DNA of 46,871 nt from Bacteroidota bacterium (GTDB taxonomy: Bacteria; Bacteroidota; Bacteroidia; Bacteroidales; UBA4417). A model generated the notes under the pieces. It saw nothing but the letters and a program-made list of their open reading frames with translations. It did not search any database and had not been told where the DNA came from. A program made the position numbers and the translations under genes. The stretch covers positions 1 through 46,871 of the forward strand of contig JBAXXB010000003.1 in assembly GCA_037128115.1 (NCBI GenBank), given 5' to 3'. Numbering within the stretch: position 1 is the first letter of the stretch; each line of letters starts with the position of its first letter. Of this stretch, positions 4,442-13,056 are shown piece by piece.

Positions 4442-5119
4442 TTAGTGTTTTTTCAGTAGGCGGTAACCAATGGATATGCCTATACCCCGGTTTTTTGTTT
4501 TATGCCCCTTGTCAGTATTGTTCGTAATATTTGCAGCCCCAATGCTACAGGATACTCCAAATGCTAAAGCTTTTATCGCTACTCCGGCACCTATATTCAA
4601 ACCAAAATCCATTCGTTTGTAGCTCGGACTGTCACCCGATCCCCAATTGATTTTTGTATTGGATTTATATGTGTGACCCAGGTAGGTTGCTTCCTGTTTC
4701 GAATTGCCCGCGATTCCAAAACCGAGATAAGGTCCTGAAAATATATACGGTTTTGTGTTGCCAAGCTTAAATGTTGCCTTTACATTTAGCGGGATATCAA
4801 TATAGTAAAGTGTGGTATTATCCTTTTGGGCAACCGTTGTACCATCGTCGAGCGTTAATCTTTGGTTGTACCGGTATCCTTTGGTGGTAAGCAGCAAGGC
4901 TGGTTCGAACGAAAATGTTTTATTAAGCGTCACTTCGGCTGTTGCCCCGACATGGAAACCGGGATTTAGCTTAAAAATATCCCTATACGTCCGGTCATTG
5001 TCTTTCGAAAGCATGGTCGATAAGTTGAAGCCCGCTTTTATACCAAAAGTCTGGGCAAAAGGCACCGAAGCATAGGCAAACAGCGCAAGAGCTATAAATA
5101 TTTTTTTATAATTTTCCAT
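4442..5119 (-). CDS. Porin family / outer-membrane beta-barrel protein
   Basis: Signal peptide ending FA-Q, FGIKAGFNLS, YIDIPLNVK, GPYLGFGI, DFGLNIGAG. Confidence 0.8.
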   Translation of the reverse strand: MENYKKIFIALALFAYASVPFAQTFGIKAGFNLSTMLSKDNDRTYRDIFKLNPGFHVGATAEVTLNKTFSFEPALLLTTKGYRYNQRLTLDDGTTVAQKDNTTLYYIDIPLNVKATFKLGNTKPYIFSGPYLGFGIAGNSKQEATYLGHTYKSNTKINWGSGDSPSYKRMDFGLNIGAGVAIKALAFGVSCSIGAANITNNTDKGHKTKNRGIGISIGYRLLKKH

Positions 5120-5396
5120 ACCTATCCAGTTATAGTTCGAATATACTTATCCGTAATTCCTCCATATTCCTGCTGAAGTAAGTTTTTCACAGGTACTACG
5201 GTTTGCTGAACCAATATATGGTTAAAACTTCCGGGTGTAAAAATAGGCTTTTATCTCAAAATAGAAATGCAAATGGAAGTATACTGTTTTGAAGGCTCAT
5301 TGCACTCATACAGGTAAAGATTCAAGGTGTTTTATTGCTAATATACCCTGTTAATTCATTGATAAAAAAACCAATACTTTGAAGTATGATTAAACA

Positions 5397-5484
5397 TGTG
5401 AATAATGTAACTATTAACTGCAATTATGTAACACATTCCCGTATCAGCTTAACAACCTTTGTGCCCATGTGGAAAGAGTTTCAC
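5397..5484 (+). promoter_or_regulatory. Conserved promoter element, copy 1 (before BON gene)
   Basis: TGTGAA 5397; TGTAAC at 5406 and 5427; ACCTTTG 5455-5461; GTG-N10-CAC 5469-5484. Confidence 0.75.
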
Positions 5485-5501
5485 TACCTAAAATTGATAA
5501 T

Positions 5502-6158
5502 ATGAAAACTAATGAAGTACTCCAGAAAGATGTTCAGGACGCGATTAAATGGGAACCGCTGCTTAACGCAGCCGAAATTGGTGTAACCGCAAAAGATGGT
5601 GTCATCACCTTAACAGGTGTTGTCGACAGCTTAGCAAAGAAATACGAAGCCGAAGATGCAGCCCGGAAAGTCGACGGTGTTAAAGCCGTAGTTGAAGAAA
5701 TTAAAATTAAATTCGGTAGCCAGGGCAAAACTACCGATACCGAAATCGCCACCGAAGTATTGAACGCCTTTAAATGGAATTGGGAAGTTCCCGCCGGCAA
5801 AATAAAAGTAAAAGTGGAAGCCGGATGGGTTACTCTTGATGGAGAAATATTCTGGAAATACCAGAAAGATGCAGCAAAAAAAACGGCAAGCAATCTCTTA
5901 GGCGTTAGAGGTGTTACAAACAACATAAGCATCCGATCGGAGATTAAGGAAGATATCGAAAAACGTGCGATTGTGCTCGCTCTTGATCGTAATTCGGCTA
6001 CTAATGGCGAGGATATTACAGTTACTGCCGAAGGTCATACCATTGCCCTTACCGGGTTCGTTCATTCGTGGTACCAGAAAGACGAAGCTGAAAAGATTGC
6101 CTGGAATGCGCCTGGTGTATGGATAGTTGATAACGAGTTGGTTCTTGACTATATATAA
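5502..6158 (+). CDS. Triple BON-domain (OsmY-like) protein
   Basis: Three BON repeats (GVITLTGVV..., GWVTLDGEI...GVRGVTNNI, IALTGFV...APGVWIVDNEL). ATG 5502 preferred because GTG 5469 lies inside the promoter palindrome. Confidence 0.9.
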   Translation: MKTNEVLQKDVQDAIKWEPLLNAAEIGVTAKDGVITLTGVVDSLAKKYEAEDAARKVDGVKAVVEEIKIKFGSQGKTTDTEIATEVLNAFKWNWEVPAGKIKVKVEAGWVTLDGEIFWKYQKDAAKKTASNLLGVRGVTNNISIRSEIKEDIEKRAIVLALDRNSATNGEDITVTAEGHTIALTGFVHSWYQKDEAEKIAWNAPGVWIVDNELVLDYI

Positions 6159-6201
6159 CCGGGAAGCAGGTAATTACACGATGGTGTTCTTCCCGGCTTT
6201 T
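6159..6201 (+). terminator. Possible intrinsic terminator
   Basis: CCGGGAAG...CTTCCCGG stem followed by CTTTT; the loop is long. Confidence 0.4.
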
Positions 6202-6332
6202 ACTTGTATCGTCAGTAAATGCACTGATATTCGATTTTATGAACGGGAATTGCTAATATGAGGTAATGCCGGCTGGATGTGACCCATGGAAACAAAAAAA
6301 TTTAATAGTCATTTATACTAAAAACAGAAATC

Positions 6333-6545
6333 ATGTTTTACGAAAATTATTATTGGGGTATGAACCTCGTGTGGTGGATTGTATGGATAATCCTGCTTTT
6401 TTGGATTTTTGCAATACCTGTTGCCATTCCCGGGCAACGCAAAAGGCCTGATTCGGCTTTGCATATTTTACAAAAACGCTTTGCTGCAGGCGAAATTACA
6501 ACCGATGATTACCGGGAGAAGAAAAAAATCCTTGACAAAGGCTGA
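6333..6545 (+). CDS. SHOCT-domain small membrane protein
   Basis: Trp-rich TM segment plus ALHILQKRFAAGEITTDDYREKKKIL. Confidence 0.85.
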   Translation: MFYENYYWGMNLVWWIVWIILLFWIFAIPVAIPGQRKRPDSALHILQKRFAAGEITTDDYREKKKILDKG

Positions 6546-6698
6546 ACAGGGGGTAATATGTTTAAGGCTATTTCGCTCAGCGATCAGAAAAATTCCTCAT
6601 AAAGCCAGCCGGGACAATGAACCTCTTTTTATTTAGTGCTTTATGCTGAGCCTTTACGGGAATCTTTAAACATAACCCTGAAAATTTACCTGTTCTTG

Positions 6699-6783
6699 TG
6701 TGAATCATGTAACTCTTACCTGAAATTTTGTAACCTTTTCTGCATGTATTGAACTCACCTTTGTATTGTGATAATTAATTCAC
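6699..6783 (+). promoter_or_regulatory. Conserved promoter element, copy 2
   Basis: TGTGAA 6699; TGTAAC at 6708 and 6729; ACCTTTG 6757-6763; GTG-N10-CAC 6768-6783. Confidence 0.8.
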
Positions 6784-6801
6784 TACTTAAGATTCAATAC
6801 A

Positions 6802-7062
6802 ATGAAAACAACAGAAATTTTGCTTAAGGTTGATGATGGCAGCAGCAGAGAAACTAATATAAAAGTAGTAGCAGGAAAAGGATTAAAATATTTGCTGTTC
6901 CTCTTTATGCTATCATCTCTATCTTTCCTGCCCTCCTGTGCGGTCGAACTTCGTACTCCCCAACCAGGTGTTAGCATTGAAAATCACAATGGATATCATC
7001 ATCACCTGGGCAATCGTCATTCCCGCAATGAGCATGTTGATGTAGATATACACAACCGCTAA
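6802..7062 (+). CDS. Small putative lipoprotein with His-rich tail
   Basis: Directly follows promoter copy 2; hydrophobic stretch ending LPSC; HNGYHHHLGNRH. Confidence 0.55.
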   Translation: MKTTEILLKVDDGSSRETNIKVVAGKGLKYLLFLFMLSSLSFLPSCAVELRTPQPGVSIENHNGYHHHLGNRHSRNEHVDVDIHNR

Positions 7063-7246
7063 ACATTTCAGTATTTAGTCGCGCAGCAGGATAAACAGCT
7101 AGTTGTTTGACTTGTAAATTATTGATTTACAACTGACCTGTTTAAATAATAGGTTCTTTTTAAGGAAAATATGAAAAATCACTTCTGCAAAGTGCTAGAG
7201 CGTAAAATTCTTATAAATAATATTTTATGGAAAATACACATTAATA

Positions 7247-7382
7247 CACTAAGCACAATGCACAATGCACTAAGCACTAAGCACAATGCACTAAGCACTA
7301 AGCACTAAGCACAATGCACAACGCACAATGCACAACGCACTAAGCACAACGCACTAAGCACAACGCACTAAGCACAATGCAC
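7247..7382. repeat. Heptamer tandem array, 19 units plus a partial unit
   Basis: Contiguous units CACTAAG, CACAATG and CACAACG. Confidence 0.97.
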
Positions 7383-7443
7383 CAGATTTAATACAATCAA
7401 CAATATTCTAAAACAGAACCAAATAATACTAAATACCAGTACA

Positions 7444-8520
7444 ATGCAAAAAAATAAATTAGAAAAACTCACAGCAGATAAAAGTAATCCTTGTCTTACA
7501 ATATCAATCAACACACATAGGACCTATCCCGATAATGCCCAGGATGCCATTTCGTTAAAAAAACTTTGTGAGGAGGCAAATGAACGGCTGATCCGGGAAT
7601 TCGGAAAAAGGCCGATTGCCCGGTTGCTTGATAAATTAGAGCTGATTCCATTCGAAATTAACGAAAACTATAACCTGGATAGCCTGCATATTTTCCTTTC
7701 AAATACCACAAGGGAAATTTTCAAATCAACCTGGCCAACCAAAGACGACAGGATATTTATATCTGATTCATTCGCCATCGGTCCTGTAATCAAATCAATG
7801 CACAAAAGCGTCGATTATTTAATTCTCGTGGTTTCGCAAAGTGGGGCAAAAATGTTTGAAGCAACAAACGACGCCATCGTTTCGGAAATTCAGAATGACT
7901 ATTTCCCGTTTACTGAAAATCCTCATTTCAACACCGACCCCGAGAAACTTAGCGATCCTAAATCAACTGATAATATGGTCCGTGAGTTCCTTAACAAAAT
8001 AGATAAAGCGGCTGTAAAAATGTTTTATCAAACCAACCTGTATTGCGTGGTTATTTGCACCGACGGTAATTATAGCCGCCTTTTACAGGTAGCCGACAAA
8101 CCTGATATTTATGCCGGGCATGCAAATATCGATTATAATAACCAGGCCGGGCATCAGGTAGCTGAACAAGCGTGGAAAATTATAAAGGAAAAACAGATAG
8201 GACGCGAAAAAGCCGCTATTGATGAAATAAAAGAAGCTATCGGCTATAATAAAGCGATCACAGGTTTATCCGAAATTTACAAAGCAGCGAAAGAAGGCAG
8301 GGGTGAATTATTGCTCATTCAGAATGACTCCGGCCAGGCAGTGAAAATGACAGGTGATAATACGTTTGAATTGGTTGATGATATTACACAACCTGGAATC
8401 ATTGACGATATCACCAGTGAAATTGCCATGGAAGTGATCACGAAAAAAGGTCGTGTGGTTTTTACCGATCTGAATGAATTGACAGGACTTGGAGACGTTA
8501 TTCTGAAAACCCGGTACTAA
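7444..8520 (+). CDS. baeRF3-family (bacterial archaeo-eukaryotic release factor-like) protein
   Basis: PCLTISINTHRT..N..D.I.LK N-terminus, YLILVVSQ..AKMFE, IYKAAKEGRGELLL, DDI...IAMEV..KKGRVVF, ILKTRY; no GGQ. Confidence 0.75.
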   Translation: MQKNKLEKLTADKSNPCLTISINTHRTYPDNAQDAISLKKLCEEANERLIREFGKRPIARLLDKLELIPFEINENYNLDSLHIFLSNTTREIFKSTWPTKDDRIFISDSFAIGPVIKSMHKSVDYLILVVSQSGAKMFEATNDAIVSEIQNDYFPFTENPHFNTDPEKLSDPKSTDNMVREFLNKIDKAAVKMFYQTNLYCVVICTDGNYSRLLQVADKPDIYAGHANIDYNNQAGHQVAEQAWKIIKEKQIGREKAAIDEIKEAIGYNKAITGLSEIYKAAKEGRGELLLIQNDSGQAVKMTGDNTFELVDDITQPGIIDDITSEIAMEVITKKGRVVFTDLNELTGLGDVILKTRY

Positions 8521-8681
8521 AAAGTGGTTACTAGTTTTGGAAAAAGTTAAGCGGGAGCAGAGCAAACAAATCAAAATGCCCTTTATACAGAGTTTCTCGG
8601 ATAAGAACCGCTCAGACTCCTATAACTTGAAAAGCTGAACATTGTTAAAGATATCATTGGGCTCTCATAGTATTAAGCTGT

Positions 8682-8865
8682 TTGAACTTTTTGAGCTTTA
8701 ACCCCCGAACCCTCAATCCCGGAACCTTTGAACCCCTGAACTCCTCTAACCCTTGAACCTTTCAAACCCTTGAACTCTTCGAACTCTTTGAACCCCTGAA
8801 CTCTTCTAACCCTTGAACCTTTCAAACCCTTGAACTCTTCGAACTCTTTGAACCCCTGAACTCTT
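8682..8865. repeat. Array of 8-10 nt TGAACyCyT-like units with a 60-bp higher-order period
   Basis: 8726-8785 and 8786-8845 differ at one base; partial third copy 8846-8865; degenerate units from about 8682. Confidence 0.93.
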
Positions 8866-8905
8866 AAACCATTTCCAAATAACCATTAACTCTCTCCCCA
8901 AAACT

Positions 8906-9793
8906 ATGGATTTCGTCGATTATTATAAAATTCTGGGTGTAGACAAAACAGCGAGTCCGAAGGACATCAAAAGTGCCTATCGGAAACTAGCGCGAAAATT
9001 TCATCCTGATCTAAATCCAAACGATAAGGATGCGAAAAGGAATTTTCAGCAGATCAATGAAGCCAACGAAGTGCTGAGCGATCCTGAGAAACGGAAGAAA
9101 TTCGACCAATATGGTAAGGATTGGCATCATGCTGACGAGTTTGAAAAGCAGAATCAGTACCGGGAACAATCTTCAAACCAAGGTGGACAAAGGTTTCCAG
9201 GCGGGCAATCTGAAGGCGATTTTTCCGACTTTTTTGAAAACCTGTTTGGCGGTTCTGCAGGTGCTGGCCGGGGCAGGCAACCCAAATACCGCGGTGAGGA
9301 TTTTAATGCCGAATTAAAACTCGAGCTTATCTATGCCTATAAGACTGAGAAACAAACTTTAACCATAAACGGCAAGAAAATACGGATTACCATTCCTGCA
9401 GGTATCGAGAACGGGCAAACCATAAAAATTCCGGGTCATGGTGGTCCGGGTAAAAACGGAGGGCCAAATGGCGACCTGTATATTACATTTTCAATAGCCA
9501 ACCACGTCAGTATTAAAAGATTGGGCGATAATTTATACTCAACTGTTGACCTCGATCTATACACTGCGATGCTTGGGGGCGAAATAACAATTGACACGTT
9601 GGATGGCCAGGTAAAACTAAAGGTAGCGCCCGAAACACAGAATGGCAGTAAAGTAAAACTAAAAGGCAAAGGATTCCCTGTGTACAAAAATGAAGGCCTT
9701 TTTGGTGACTTTATTGTGACCTGGAACATCAAAATGCCAACCCATCTAACTGACAGGCAAAAGGAGTTATTTACTGAATTGTCAAAATCTTAA
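8906..9793 (+). CDS. cbpA: DnaJ-class co-chaperone CbpA
   Basis: J domain with HPD, G/F region, DnaJ C-terminal domain, no zinc finger; followed by cbpM. Confidence 0.9.
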
Positions 9794-9803
9794 AACATTA
9801 GCC

Positions 9804-10103
9804 ATGCAAACCGAATTTTTAGTTGCTGTTGATGAGTTCTGTGCCAGTCACAACATTGAAATTTCATTTATCAGTTCGTTACAGCAAAACGGGTTGGTAG
9901 AAATAATCACTTTAGAGCAAACCGGGTTTATCGACGCCGAACAGCTTCCGCAAGTGGAGAAATTTATCCGTTTTTATTATGAACTGGATATTAACATCGA
10001 AGGCATAGAAACCACTTCGTATATGCTCGACCGTATCCGTAGCATGCAGGACGAAATAATTCAGCTGCGCAACCGCCTCCGCCTTTTTGAACTGAATGAG
10101 TAG
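9804..10103 (+). CDS. cbpM: Chaperone modulator CbpM
   Basis: MerR-like, ELDINIEGIE...LRNRL; immediately downstream of cbpA. Confidence 0.85.
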   Translation: MQTEFLVAVDEFCASHNIEISFISSLQQNGLVEIITLEQTGFIDAEQLPQVEKFIRFYYELDINIEGIETTSYMLDRIRSMQDEIIQLRNRLRLFELNE

Positions 10104-10213
10104 ATGACAGAACTAAACTCTTCTGAAGAGTTAGACTATGTTTTTCTGTTATGGGAATAACGACTGATTTAGATATTAAGCTTAATAATCAGGATGCACG
10201 CAGGCAATATCAG

Positions 10214-10298
10214 TGTGAATTATGTAACTCTTTTCAGGAATAATGTAACACTTTTAGGAAGGGATAAACGCACCTTTGCCATGTGGAAATTATTTCAC
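10214..10298 (+). promoter_or_regulatory. Conserved promoter element, copy 3 (before csbD-1)
   Basis: TGTGAA 10214; TGTAAC at 10223 and 10244; ACCTTTG 10272-10278; GTG-N10-CAC 10283-10298. Confidence 0.8.
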
Positions 10299-10334
10299 AA
10301 TGTTCCGCCAGTTGCGGGAATAAAACCTTGAAAA

Positions 10335-10520
10335 ATGAATACTGTTGAAGCAAAAGGAAACTGGAATGAGCAAAAAGGCAAGCTCAAAATGAAGTTTGGA
10401 TATTTAACCGACAATGACCTGATGTTTGAAGAAGGCAAGAAAGATGAGATGCTCGGAAGACTTCAAATCAAACTCGGTAAAACGAAAGAGGAATTGCTCA
10501 AAGTTATTGCATCGCTTTAA
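10335..10520 (+). CDS. csbD: CsbD family general stress protein
   Basis: [34 protein letters not shown]. Confidence 0.9.
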
Positions 10521-10543
10521 CTACGGGCATTTTGAGAAAGATT

Positions 10544-10578
10544 CCGTTTAGCGGGATATATCGCTAAACGGGTCTTTT
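10544..10578 (+). terminator. Intrinsic terminator
   Basis: CCGTTTAGCG/CGCTAAACGG stem followed by GTCTTTT. Confidence 0.65.
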
Positions 10579-10622
10579 GAAAATCAGCATAACCAAATCT
10601 AAAACAATTAACAAACCACCAG

Positions 10623-11069
10623 ATGAAAAGGACAATGATTACTCTCGCTATGGTATCAACGCTTATTGCGGGTACCATATTATCCGGCTGCAAACCTTCG
10701 ACAGCAAAAGTGGAAGCAGCACAGGAAAATGTACAGGATGCAAAACAGGAACTGAAGGATGCTCAGAAAGACGCTACCGCTGAAGAATGGAAGGCATTTA
10801 AAGATGAATCGAATGTGAAAATCAAGGACAACGAAACCCGTATCGCTGAGTTAAAAGCAAAAATGAAAAGGTCGGGCAATAAACTGGATGCACTCTACGA
10901 AAAAAAGATCGATGAACTGGAGCAGAAAAACATAGAATTGAAAGCCAGGATTGATACGTATGAAACCAGTGCCCATAGCAACTGGGAATCCTTTAAGCTT
11001 GAATTTAACCATGATATGGATGAACTTGGAAAAGCCATGAAAGACCTTACGGTCAATAATACAAAATAG
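10623..11069 (+). CDS. Coiled-coil lipoprotein, function unknown
   Basis: Lipobox LSGC; charged helical body; WESFKLEFNHDMDELG. Confidence 0.8.
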   Translation: MKRTMITLAMVSTLIAGTILSGCKPSTAKVEAAQENVQDAKQELKDAQKDATAEEWKAFKDESNVKIKDNETRIAELKAKMKRSGNKLDALYEKKIDELEQKNIELKARIDTYETSAHSNWESFKLEFNHDMDELGKAMKDLTVNNTK

Positions 11070-11086
11070 TCTGAAAAGCAGATTGT

Positions 11087-11119
11087 AAGAGGCGGGAAAG
11101 CAATTTCCCGCCTCTTTTT
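11087..11119 (+). terminator. Intrinsic terminator
   Basis: AAGAGGCGGGAAA-GCAA-TTTCCCGCCTCTT followed by a T run. Confidence 0.85.
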
Positions 11120-11197
11120 CTGCTACCTGTATTTTCATTCTATTCTAAGGACGGGTAACCCGGAAATAGATGGTGTATTGACTTAATCACCGGGAAG

Positions 11198-11282
11198 TGT
11201 GAATGATGTAACTCTTCGAATGAATTGTGTAATGCTCCCGGGTGATAAGAGACTCACCTTTGCAGTGTGAAAATTATTTCAC
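11198..11282 (+). promoter_or_regulatory. Conserved promoter element, copy 4 (before csbD-2)
   Basis: TGTGAA 11198; TGTAAC 11207 and TGTAAT 11228; ACCTTTG 11256-11262; GTG-N10-CAC 11267-11282. Confidence 0.8.
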
Positions 11283-11318
11283 ATTCACCCCTGAAATTCA
11301 GGAATATAAAAACAAGAT

Positions 11319-11504
11319 ATGAATACCATTGACGTAAAAGGAAGCTGGAATGAGAGAAAAGGGAAACTAAAACAAAAATTTAGTTTTTTAACGGATAATG
11401 ATCTGCTGGTCGAAGAAGGCAAAACTGACGAACTGCTGGGAAAACTACAGCTCAAACTAGGTAAATCAAAGGATGAACTGCGCAGGATAATAGCTGCCTT
11501 ATAA
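11319..11504 (+). CDS. csbD: CsbD family protein, second paralog
   Basis: 41/61 residues identical to 10335..10520 by manual count. Confidence 0.9.
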
Positions 11505-11562
11505 TTCACATCATTTTCCGTAAAACCCGGAGATTTGTTCCAATTGTCCTGATAATAACGCT

Positions 11563-12006
11563 ATGAAAACAAATAAAAAGACTATCCTGATGAAAAAGAT
11601 CAGTTTCATTGTTTTTACCTCAATACTGATACTTACGTTGAATTCCTGCGCAACAAAGGCGGGTTTCTCAACCTCAAAAGTTGTCCCTGAAGCACGTGGG
11701 TACGTAAAGGTTGAAGTTGATGACAATAAAGACTACGTGATCAGAATCCATCTCTCTGACCTGGTAGAATCCTCAAGGTTACGTCCATCAAAACGGACCT
11801 ACGTGGTTTGGATGGTAACTGACCAGTATACCACGAAAAATATCGGACAGGTGTTTAGTTCGGCCAGTGATTTCCCGTATAAACTGAAGTCAACGTTTGT
11901 AGCAGTATCTCCTTTCAAGCCAGCCAAGATATTTATTACGGCAGAAAATGACGCATCCATTAAGTACCCTGGCGTGCAGGTTGTGCTTTCAACTAACAGG
12001 TTTTAG
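11563..12006 (+). CDS. Hypothetical lipoprotein
   Basis: Lipobox LNSC; TYVVWMVT, KNIGQ, IFITAE; alternative start at 11590. Confidence 0.75.
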   Translation: MKTNKKTILMKKISFIVFTSILILTLNSCATKAGFSTSKVVPEARGYVKVEVDDNKDYVIRIHLSDLVESSRLRPSKRTYVVWMVTDQYTTKNIGQVFSSASDFPYKLKSTFVAVSPFKPAKIFITAENDASIKYPGVQVVLSTNRF

Positions 12007-12088
12007 CTCATCAAAAACAAGTAAGCTGGAGTGAATTCTAATTTCCATGCATAAATTCAACTCAATAACATTAAACTTAACAGGTAAA

Positions 12089-12250
12089 ATGGGCACTCTT
12101 CTCAATGTAATAGCTGTAATTATGATCATCTTATGGGCTGTAGGATACTATGCATACGGTGCCGGTCCATTTATCCATAGCCTCCTTGTTATTGCTGTCA
12201 TAGCAATGTTATTAAGGGTTATTCAGGGCATTAGGAGTTCAAAAGAATAA
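12089..12250 (+). CDS. lmo0937-family small membrane protein
   Basis: MGTLLNVIAVIMIILWAVG...FIHSLLVIAVIAMLLRVIQG; ATG 12089 preferred. Confidence 0.8.
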   Translation: MGTLLNVIAVIMIILWAVGYYAYGAGPFIHSLLVIAVIAMLLRVIQGIRSSKE

Positions 12251-12375
12251 TATTATTTTGATGACAGGCTCAAATCTGCAGGTATCCCGGCAGGAAATAC
12301 TATTAAAAATAATTCAAACGTTATGTGCGGGATTTCATGCGACTTTGGACTAGTTTATAAAAACGAAAGATTTAA

Positions 12376-13056
12376 ATGGAATATAAAATGAAAAATTCAG
12401 TATTTGCACAAACATATTACCTGTTGGCAATATGCATATTGCTCGGAAGCCAGGCTGTTATGGCCCAGGAACAACAAACGGCAAATGAAACGCAATTTGG
12501 TCTCAAGGGAGGAGTGAATTTTTCTGATCTCTTTACCGAAGGTGCCGACAGGTCTAATACGATAGCCGGTTTCAATGCCGGTTTATTCGCAAAGGTGGCT
12601 GTCGCATCAAAATGGGCCATCCAACCTGAAATATATTATACCACCAAGGGAGCCGAAGTAACGTACAACAACAGTTTTGTTGATGGTACGGCCCGTTTCA
12701 GGCTTAATTACATTGAAATGCCGCTTCTGCTTGTTGCCGATATTGGTGACAAAGTACAAATCATGCTGGGTCCCTATGCTTCTTACCTTGTCGGTGGTAA
12801 AGTGAAAAATTCATCCAATGTCCAGCTGTTTAATTTTGAAGACAATATCAGTGTAAACGACTACAACCGGTTTGATTTTGGAATAGTGGCAGGCATCTCC
12901 ATGGATTTTGGGACAGTAAGTATAGGGTCCAGGTATACCTATGGATTAACTACCGTTGGGAAAGAACGAACCTTTGCAGGATCACAATATACTTTCCCCG
13001 ATGCTAATAACGGCGTATTGAATTTCTTTATGGCTGTTCCGATACTTGGAAATTGA
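12376..13056 (+). CDS. Porin family / outer-membrane beta-barrel protein
   Basis: Signal peptide, FGLKGGVNFS, IQPEIYYTTKG, LNYIEMPLL, GPYASYL. Confidence 0.85.
   Translation: MEYKMKNSVFAQTYYLLAICILLGSQAVMAQEQQTANETQFGLKGGVNFSDLFTEGADRSNTIAGFNAGLFAKVAVASKWAIQPEIYYTTKGAEVTYNNSFVDGTARFRLNYIEMPLLLVADIGDKVQIMLGPYASYLVGGKVKNSSNVQLFNFEDNISVNDYNRFDFGIVAGISMDFGTVSIGSRYTYGLTTVGKERTFAGSQYTFPDANNGVLNFFMAVPILGN

Follow-up and report, generated by a model that had tools for sequence, protein, structure and literature searches.

A tandem direct-repeat promoter element and a candidate small AraC-family activator point to a likely stress regulon in Bacteroidota

A 46,871-nucleotide stretch of a Bacteroidota genome (contig JBAXXB010000003.1 of assembly GCA_037128115.1; Bacteroidales, UBA4417), hereafter the window, carries four promoters built to one plan: a tandem direct repeat with a 21-bp period, a −7-type box at a fixed distance downstream, and a GTG-N10-CAC dyad beyond it. 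Our analyses suggest that this composite is probably a class-II-type, activator-dependent promoter, and that its activator is a small AraC-family protein encoded within an autoregulated operon together with a kinase and a receiver. Regulator, motif, spacing and core regulon are, as judged from genome comparison, conserved together across several Bacteroidota orders, and they likely define a phylum-wide, uncharacterised stress regulon. Neither motif, regulator nor regulon was described in the full-text literature and the extracytoplasmic function (ECF) classification paper that we searched, a scope that leaves aside subscription journals, RegPrecise and supplements.

A preliminary description of the window had reported four sites with exact 21-bp and 28-bp spacings, and our searches found these same sites. 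The pattern TGTGAATnATGTAACT-N14-TGTAAY-N22-ACCTTTG matched exactly at 5397, 6699, 10214 and 11198 on the forward strand and nowhere else in the window (four matches versus 0.00 expected from 100 dinucleotide-preserving shuffles). The 15-mer TGTGAATnATGTAACT alone, with up to two mismatches allowed, returned the same four sites, versus 0.6 expected. Alignment of the four copies revealed 44 invariant columns that fall in blocks, with diverged spacers between them. A GTG-N10-CAC palindrome lies downstream of all four −7 boxes (at 5469, 6768, 10283 and 11267), and in the copy that precedes a BON-domain gene it is displaced downstream by 3 nt relative to the remaining copies.

The window is contig C3 of an assembly of 4.77 Mb in 524 contigs (G000; 85% complete). 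Relaxed searches yielded 21 sites of the same architecture on seven contigs, from which we built a 43-column matrix and scanned both strands of the assembly, an approach that the preliminary description had suggested. The scores were bimodal, with 21 sites at 46–60 bits, three variants at 20–30 bits and the next best match at 12.7 bits. With up to two mismatches allowed, the composite pattern occurred at 24–46 places per genome in five genomes, and the reversed control at 0, 0, 0, 4 and 0. The four copies first taken to define the regulon are real but understate it: the predicted regulon comprises about 25–45 promoters per genome, often in islands.

In the consensus of the 21 sites, and in that of 106 sites from six related genomes (score of 30 bits or more), the repeat unit is AAT-N2-TGTAAC with a 21-bp period, and the two boxes stand in direct orientation. 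The distal copy has a 5' extension (GTGTGAATnATGTAACT). The seven bases between the boxes and the ~20 bases ahead of the −7 box are without information content, and the conserved element amounts to ~51 bits. Because the spacers are devoid of information and the architecture is conserved across orders, we attribute the likeness of the copies to selection rather than to recent duplication, as had been proposed from the window alone. A mobile or duplicated cassette was ruled out by the same spacers and by the presence of sites at orthologous genes in distant lineages.

Bacteroidetes promoters have the consensus −33 TTTG and −7 TAnnTTTG. In the composite, the TTTG of the −7 box falls at one fixed index in 88 of the 106 sites and one base off in five, and TGTAAY starts 28 bp ahead of the A in nAnnTTTG, again fixed in 88/106. 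TTT[G/A] occupies that same index in 137 of 168 sites of other lineages. The −7 consensus is nA(c/a)(c/t)TTTG. At the position of the housekeeping first T, we counted C 42, T 34, G 18 and A 1 (n = 95), followed by A in 90/95. The absence of this first T, noted earlier for the window, holds in its four copies and is an overall tendency only; with T present in 34 of 95 sites, the view that these promoters are deliberately weak is not established.

The 20–30-bit variants are three promoters on contig C22 within 1.4 kb (sites 6222, 6858 and 7618, minus strand) with the variant distal boxes GTGATAAT, GTGGTAAT and ATGGCAAT. They lie upstream of small proteins of 60–80 amino acids, one of them Cys-rich, and similar variants occur in two relatives (G013 and G005). 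These sites may be targets of a paralogous regulator.

No regulator gene is present in the window, as had been stated. A candidate AraC-family regulator is encoded on contig C60 (2723-3301) of the same assembly, where a motif at 1371 is followed by genes for an OmpA-like protein, a 70-aa membrane protein, the AraC regulator, a hybrid kinase and a single-domain receiver. No terminator-like site was found on the operon strand between 1371 and 7794; one lies directly after the receiver gene.

We profiled the co-occurrence of this gene family and the motif in 41 genomes of the genus and order, counting exact 15-mer matches. An AraC homologue was found in 14/14 relatives with at least two matches, in 3/4 with one and in 4/23 with none. 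One of these four motif-less exceptions (G012) has five matrix-level sites (34–45 bits) beside its AraC genes. In six relatives, the AraC gene lies within the motif islands, behind a motif. A degenerate composite pattern and the AraC family (E ≤ 1e-40) were then compared in a phylum sample of 300 genomes. The pattern was detected in 13 genomes (reversed control, 0 in all 301), and the AraC family in 12 of these 13 versus 79 of the 287 pattern-less genomes. In six genomes of this sample, the AraC gene and the motif are adjacent or at most 7 kb apart.

A search for orthologues, taking one genome per species, gave 80 loci whose regulators are 73–92% identical. According to the record labels, they come from Lentimicrobiaceae, Labilibaculum, Ancylomarina, Paludibacter, Flavobacterium, Crocinitomicaceae, Vicingus, Ferruginibacter, Flavipsychrobacter, Lacibacter, Saprospiraceae, Daejeonella and Cytophagales. 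A motif site of at least 18 bits is present in 73/80 loci. Upstream of the AraC gene, the first site on the gene's strand lies within 200 bp in 32/80 (mostly 104–116 bp), at 201–700 bp in 14/80 and at 701–2500 bp in 16/80; it is absent in 18, five of which have no upstream DNA. The kinase was matched in 75/80 loci and the receiver in 64/80, almost always directly downstream. A narrow distribution (the exact 15-mer never has three or more matches in the 300 phylum genomes) was dropped as an artefact of exact matching and sampling, because the matrix scan found sites in the orthologue loci.

We consider the site ~110 bp ahead of the regulator gene, recurring in distant lineages, to be the strongest argument for the proposed link, rather than the co-occurrence counts. 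The earlier suggestion of an AraC-type activator on direct repeats two helical turns apart, and of a search for a co-occurring AraC gene, is substantially borne out by comparison: the motif heads an operon that includes a small AraC gene, homologues of this gene occur in every motif-rich relative, and the motif accompanies it in most orthologue loci.

The regulator is 185 aa long from its ATG, or 192 aa from a conserved start seven codons upstream, and only HTH_18 and HTH_AraC were identified in it by Pfam. Its AlphaFold model (pLDDT 92.4) has a canonical MarA/SoxS/Rob-type double helix-turn-helix domain joined by a linker helix to the N-terminal domain, and the predicted DNA-binding domain aligns with MarA, SoxS, Rob and AdpA at TM 0.7–0.84 (normalised to target). 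The best sequence match in the PDB is 12aw_A, a Bacteroides 'hybrid two-component system protein' (E 5.3e-07). The N-terminal ~60 residues are predicted to adopt a beta-alpha-beta-beta-alpha-beta fold of the ferredoxin type (AF2 model, pLDDT 85.5), for which the top Foldseek matches are the HMA metallochaperones GolB, CopZ, Atx1/HAH1 and MerP (TM ~0.7 and rmsd ~2.2 Å over 65 residues, with E only 0.009–0.1). The MxCxxC metal motif is absent from this HMA-like domain; an invariant M-V-S-x-R-C (S10, C13) stands there in 50 orthologues, so that SxxC replaces CxxC. Pfam HMA gave no match to the N-terminus at E ≤ 1, no NCBIfam equivalog model reached its cut-off for the regulator, and no Pfam or NCBIfam model covers the N-terminal domain.

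The kinase orthologue in a relative with a closed chromosome (G005) has CHASE3, PAS, HisKA, HATPase and receiver domains, and its last 144 residues match Hpt weakly (17.5 bits, below the Pfam cut-off of 24.6). The free receiver shows 79% column identity among 38 orthologues and an invariant phospho-acceptor set (D13, D14, D57, S90 and K112). Separately, some islands (L012, L013, L014 and L019–L023; genomes G014, G033, G002 and G008) encode one to three further AraC regulator paralogues, 39–72% identical.

Functional annotation of the genes behind the motif (Pfam, NCBIfam) revealed that all sites in the assembly lie upstream of stress or envelope genes. The first genes and their followers include a BON protein (OsmY-like), SHOCT, at least four CsbD, two YtxH and two lmo0937/DUF5670 proteins, an sll1863-family stress lipoprotein, OmpA-like proteins, two MlaEFD-type ABC systems and a DUF748/AsmA-like protein. 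Further targets are a Big_5/ice-binding-like protein, DUF3943 with PAP2, DUF6600, Usp, Nramp and several family-less small proteins. In the closed chromosome of G005, the sites cluster in an island of ~75–80 kb with the same genes and, in addition, TamB/Omp85, L,D-transpeptidases, an M48 peptidase, CbpA and more OmpA-like proteins.

In the orthologue loci, 155 of 169 sites of at least 30 bits have a same-strand ATG open reading frame (ORF) 85–330 nt downstream (median 106). We put 149 of these ORFs through Pfam (one duplicate and the last five of the 155 were left out) and counted the families by hand. The first genes encode 30 AraC, 20 OmpA, 16 CsbD, 10 ice-binding, 2 Big_5-only and 7 DUF5670 proteins, three each of MlaE, cupin and single receivers, and two each of YtxH, GH130, DUF6600 and Haem_bd; nine are singletons and 37 are family-less. 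The predicted products belong to the envelope, to dormancy and to stress, and this content resembles a general or envelope stress regulon (CsbD, OsmY/BON, YtxH, Usp, Dps), in line with the original stress-regulon reading. Large Big_5 and ice-binding-like (PF11999) proteins, such as that at L001:682-3795 (minus strand), are regular members across orders (10/149), which hints at a link to cold or freezing, or to surface hydration.

The alternative sigma factors that govern general stress in model phyla are, to our knowledge, absent from Bacteroidota. The RpoS and SigB models (TIGR02394 and TIGR02941) gave no match above cut-off in this 85% complete assembly, which agrees with the earlier remark on these two factors.

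We propose that two monomers of the small AraC regulator would bind the tandem AAT-N2-TGTAAC repeat. With the transcription start site (TSS) placed from the −7 box, the distal copy GTGTGAATnATGTAACT would lie at about −70 to −54 and the proximal TGTAAY at about −39 to −34, in place of the Bacteroidetes −33 element. A class II activator role would follow from this location of the proximal box where the −33 element should be: the regulator would recruit the housekeeping sigma-A polymerase to the nA(c/a)(c/t)TTTG box 28 bp downstream. As the operon is preceded by its own motif, positive autoregulation is predicted. The signal would pass from the kinase through a phosphorelay to the free receiver, which would control the AraC protein by protein contact. 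The system could be pictured as a Bacteroides hybrid two-component regulator taken apart, since in the latter the receiver gates the AraC domain in cis.

Several points weigh against this interpretation, for which the evidence is comparative and computational throughout. The regulator itself is without a receiver domain, and its contact with the free receiver is one that we infer; the Hpt match of the kinase, at 17.5 versus 24.6 bits, falls below the Pfam cut-off. The ~51 bits of the element far exceed the need of one regulator, and further proteins may read it. Part of the co-occurrence is trivial, since any gene in a motif island would co-occur with the motif and the regulator gene is one of them, and related genomes are not independent. 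Genomes with 65–74% identical orthologues show weak or no sites near the gene (none in G027, weak in G085). Members of the AraC family are also found in the 79 pattern-less phylum genomes counted above, although diverged sites escape the exact-match pattern, and the island paralogues and the orthologue were taken together rather than separated.

The same surplus of information and the same island effect would suit an unlinked transcription factor, for example of the CRP/FNR type, that reads the boxes while the AraC protein is a mere regulon member. TGTGA is a CRP half-site, ~51 bits are more than one factor needs, and every gene of an island would be expected to co-occur with the motif found there. 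We nevertheless regard this reading as improbable. The boxes are direct and not inverted repeats, and their 21-bp tandem geometry is that reported for AraC-type sites of hybrid two-component systems (PMC3878776). Among the 70 ORFs of the G005 island, the sole Pfam DNA-binding domains are those of a LytTR regulator at the edge, and the AraC gene of G005 lies at a locus junction. The AraC gene is moreover the constant neighbour in the 80 loci, with a site at most 200 bp upstream in 32 of them.

That a LytTR-type response regulator binds the repeats is disfavoured and, in our estimate, very improbable. LytTR regulators typically recognise direct repeats of ~9 bp separated by 12–13-bp spacers, a period of 21–22 bp, that end next to the −35 region. 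The geometry fits, and the G005 island has at its left edge a LytTR regulator, accompanied by its kinase, that is divergent from a motif site. However, LytTR orthologues (E ≤ 1e-40) occur in 12/14 motif-rich genomes (missing in G008 and G019) versus 10/23 motif-less ones, lie off the island contigs in three relatives (G013, G014 and G023), and in our assembly stand on a contig without a site (C138). None of the 80 orthologue loci has a LytTR match. This candidate was rejected on co-occurrence and location. Just as slight is the chance that the element is an alternative sigma promoter, with TGTAAC as a −35-like box or with C/A-ACCTTTG read by a sigma-A-like paralogue. Many ECF sigma factors use GTAAC-like −35 boxes, and the assembly encodes two primary-like sigma paralogues that are 69% identical. 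Against this, the region 16–17 nt after TGTAAC is without information, a sigma-A-type nAnnTTTG stands at a fixed 28 bp downstream, and sigma promoters do not have a second box copy such as that at −57; the 70 G005 island ORFs yielded no sigma gene, and the RpoS and SigB models remain below cut-off. A second sigma-A-like paralogue as the reader was rejected, as motif-less species of the genus have both paralogues too.

The two primary-like sigma-70 paralogues (~290 aa; C259:965-1831 and C266:1955-2815, loci L105 and L106) both have a Bacteroidetes RpoD-type N-terminus and are not linked to the motif. At least two copies of primary-like sigma-70 occur in most of the 41 relatives searched.

The four window promoters and the genes that follow them are listed here.

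5397..5432, forward strand: predicted upstream activator element of promoter 1 (BON promoter), with distal box TGTGAATAATGTAACT and proximal TGTAAC 21 bp downstream; 45.9 bits.
5455..5461, forward strand: −7 box ACCTTTG of promoter 1, starting 28 bp after the proximal TGTAAC.
5469..5484, forward strand: GTG-N10-CAC dyad of promoter 1, shifted by +3 relative to the other three copies.
5502..6158, forward strand: BON-domain protein, first gene of promoter 1, with three BON repeats, OsmY-like (Pfam BON, E 4.9e-46).
6333-6545, forward strand: SHOCT protein after the BON gene (Pfam SHOCT, E 9.5e-07), which may be co-transcribed with it.
6699..6734, forward strand: predicted upstream activator element of promoter 2; 48.1 bits.
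6757..6763, forward strand: −7 box ACCTTTG of promoter 2.
6768..6783, forward strand: GTG-N10-CAC dyad of promoter 2.
6802..7062, forward strand: 86-aa His-rich small protein of no family, first gene of promoter 2.
10214..10249, forward strand: predicted upstream activator element of promoter 3 (csbD); 54.0 bits.
10272..10278, forward strand: −7 box ACCTTTG of promoter 3.
10283..10298, forward strand: GTG-N10-CAC dyad of promoter 3.
10335-10520, forward strand: CsbD-like protein, after promoter 3.
10543-10572 and 11087-11116: terminator-like hairpins near the promoter 3 genes.
10623-11069, forward strand: sll1863-family stress lipoprotein, after promoter 3.
11198..11233, forward strand: predicted upstream activator element of promoter 4 (csbD); 55.2 bits.
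11256..11262, forward strand: −7 box ACCTTTG of promoter 4.
11267..11282, forward strand: GTG-N10-CAC dyad of promoter 4, TGTGAAAATTATTTCACA.
11319-11504, forward strand: second CsbD, after promoter 4.
11563-12006, forward strand: 147-aa lipoprotein-like ORF, after promoter 4.
12047-12250, forward strand: lmo0937/DUF5670 membrane protein, after promoter 4.
12376-13056, forward strand: OMP beta-barrel protein, after promoter 4.

The OsmY model scores 76 bits on the BON-domain protein, under its cut-off of 174. The His-rich protein has a paralogue on contig C60 (18099-18347) behind the same promoter type. The 21-bp period of the promoter 3 element was also called by Tandem Repeats Finder. The promoter 4 genes (11319..13056) all lie on the same strand and are probably co-transcribed. 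A search of window positions 5000-12500 against Rfam 15 gave no match at the four sites (E ≤ 1); the only two matches, both weak, lie at 11026-11125, on the terminator.

The gene for a baeRF family 3 protein of 358 aa (7444-8520, forward strand; Pfam E 3.5e-36) has promoter 2 on one side and a CbpA/CbpM-like pair (8906-9793 and 9804-10103) on the other, with no motif directly upstream. The protein scores 268 bits on the NCBIfam model for AOC03_06830-family ribosome hibernation factors (cut-off 330). Two intergenic tandem-repeat arrays lie on either side of this hibernation-factor-like gene (7243-7382 and 8722-8865); their repeat units measure 14/28 bp (~10 and 5 copies) and 60 bp (2.4 copies, 97% matches). 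Repeats of the GAACCCTTGAAC type, similar to these arrays, are found on contigs C322 and C509.

The GTG-N10-CAC dyad is a real, optional and conserved module. Its GTG begins 4 nt after TTTG, always at the same offset, in 17 of the 106 promoters (20 with shifted copies), versus 0.012 expected. In other orders, it was found in 13/149 promoters, with enrichment at csbD (5/16) and ice-binding/Big_5 genes (3/12); OmpA had 1/20 and other genes 4/64. There it is absent from the regulator's own promoter (0/30) and from DUF5670 promoters (0/7). The preliminary description had assigned the dyad to a second dimeric factor or to an RNA hairpin; the palindrome itself is real, but it marks only the minority of promoters just given, and neither of these readings is established.

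We weighed three readings of the dyad, a set that we hold jointly with limited confidence. The foremost, although tentative, is an operator of a dimeric repressor that would overlap the start site. A 5'-terminal RNA hairpin that stabilises the mRNA seems rather unlikely. Eight G-U cells at pair 4 and the fold of one csbD leader of the four in the window (z −3.3 relative to shuffles) argue for it. However, covariation among 36 distinct copies is no higher than in shuffles (0.110 versus 0.092 ± 0.015; 59/500 as high), the BON and His-rich leaders fold no better than shuffles, and conservation is far stronger in the left half GTGAAAAT than in the right one. Pairing is also poor beyond five base pairs, with pair 6 unpaired in 22/36. 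Slightly less probable still is a third, low-affinity site of the same regulator, to which the resemblance between the left half TGTGAAAAT and the distal box GTGTGAATnAT points. Some other explanation has a small chance of applying.

CRP/FNR operators have the form TGTGA-N6-TCACA or TTGAT-N4-ATCAA. The dyad was rejected as a site of this type, its spacing being TGTGA-N8-TCACA and not N6, and no Crp-family domain was found by Pfam among the 70 G005 island ORFs. In csbD leaders (10303-10319 and 11290-11302 in the window; L010, L015 and L019), a second small, CCGCCAGTTGCGG-like hairpin lies just after the dyad, perhaps as a leader RNA element or as a further protein site; related genomes have a similar sequence in their csbD leaders.

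A broader and more speculative view, to which we give distinctly less credence than to the activator-dependent promoter, is that the system acts as master switch for general stress and dormancy throughout the Bacteroidota. In such a 'split HTCS' (hybrid two-component system), the CHASE3 tripartite kinase would phosphorylate the free receiver, which would gate the HMA-like/AraC activator, and the dyad would add a second layer for csbD and ice-binding genes. If true, its role in environmental Bacteroidota would be the one that RpoS, SigB or PhyR-EcfG fill in other bacteria. As a replacement for alternative sigma factors in Bacteroidota, the present system offers a concrete candidate, a highly conserved three-gene signalling module with an operator of unusually high information content. 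Motif and module together should allow the regulon to be predicted from sequence in hundreds of environmental Bacteroidota, and the carriers include the cultured Labilibaculum, Flavobacterium restrictum and Ferruginibacter. They would also lend a context and function to many 'unknown' small proteins, among them CsbD, YtxH, DUF5670, sll1863-family and ice-binding-like proteins.

Compared with known systems, the composite shares its tandem direct-repeat geometry with class II activators of the AraC/XylS family (AraC, XylS, RhaS, MelR). In AraC I1-I2 and XylS, the direct repeats are spaced by two helical turns and the proximal repeat covers the −35 region. The candidate differs from this family in its sensor domain, a ~60-residue HMA-like fold and not a cupin or sugar-binding domain, and in its promoter, which is of the Bacteroidetes −7 type. 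The LytTR regulators AgrA, ComE and PlnC share the 21–22-bp period, but no LytTR gene is linked to the motif. With the sigma-B regulons of Bacillus and Listeria and the RpoS regulon of Proteobacteria, the predicted regulon has in common CsbD, BON/OsmY-like proteins, YtxH, the lmo0937 family, Usp and Dps/ferritin, and a ribosome-hibernation-like factor lies in the same island. Unlike these regulons, it is known from sequence and would be governed by an activator at housekeeping-type promoters rather than by an alternative sigma factor. In the PhyR-NepR-EcfG system of Alphaproteobacteria, a receiver-domain protein stands at the end of a phosphorelay, and we predict a similar arrangement here.

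A close parallel is with the HTCS of Bacteroides. Sensor kinase, receiver and AraC domain are all present here, as is a ~21-bp tandem element, and the AraC-type domain of the regulator finds its best PDB match in the HTCS protein 12aw_A. For the AraC domains of Bacteroides HTCS, direct-repeat operators with an average centre distance of 21 bp have been predicted (PMC3878776). For one of these proteins, tandem half-site binding once the receiver is activated is described from electrophoretic mobility shift assays and footprinting, with two recognition helices per domain in adjacent major grooves, and the unphosphorylated receiver domain is described as blocking binding (PMC13292587). An HTCS is one polypeptide, whereas here there are three proteins, kinase and receiver being encoded by separate genes, and the HMA-like domain of the regulator is lacking in HTCS. 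The sensor here is of the CHASE3-PAS type and not a periplasmic sugar sensor, and the targets are stress and envelope genes rather than polysaccharide utilisation loci. The present system is probably also autoregulated, to judge from the motif position, and is 73–92% identical across orders. From it one may learn how regulators of the HTCS type can function when their parts are divided among several proteins.

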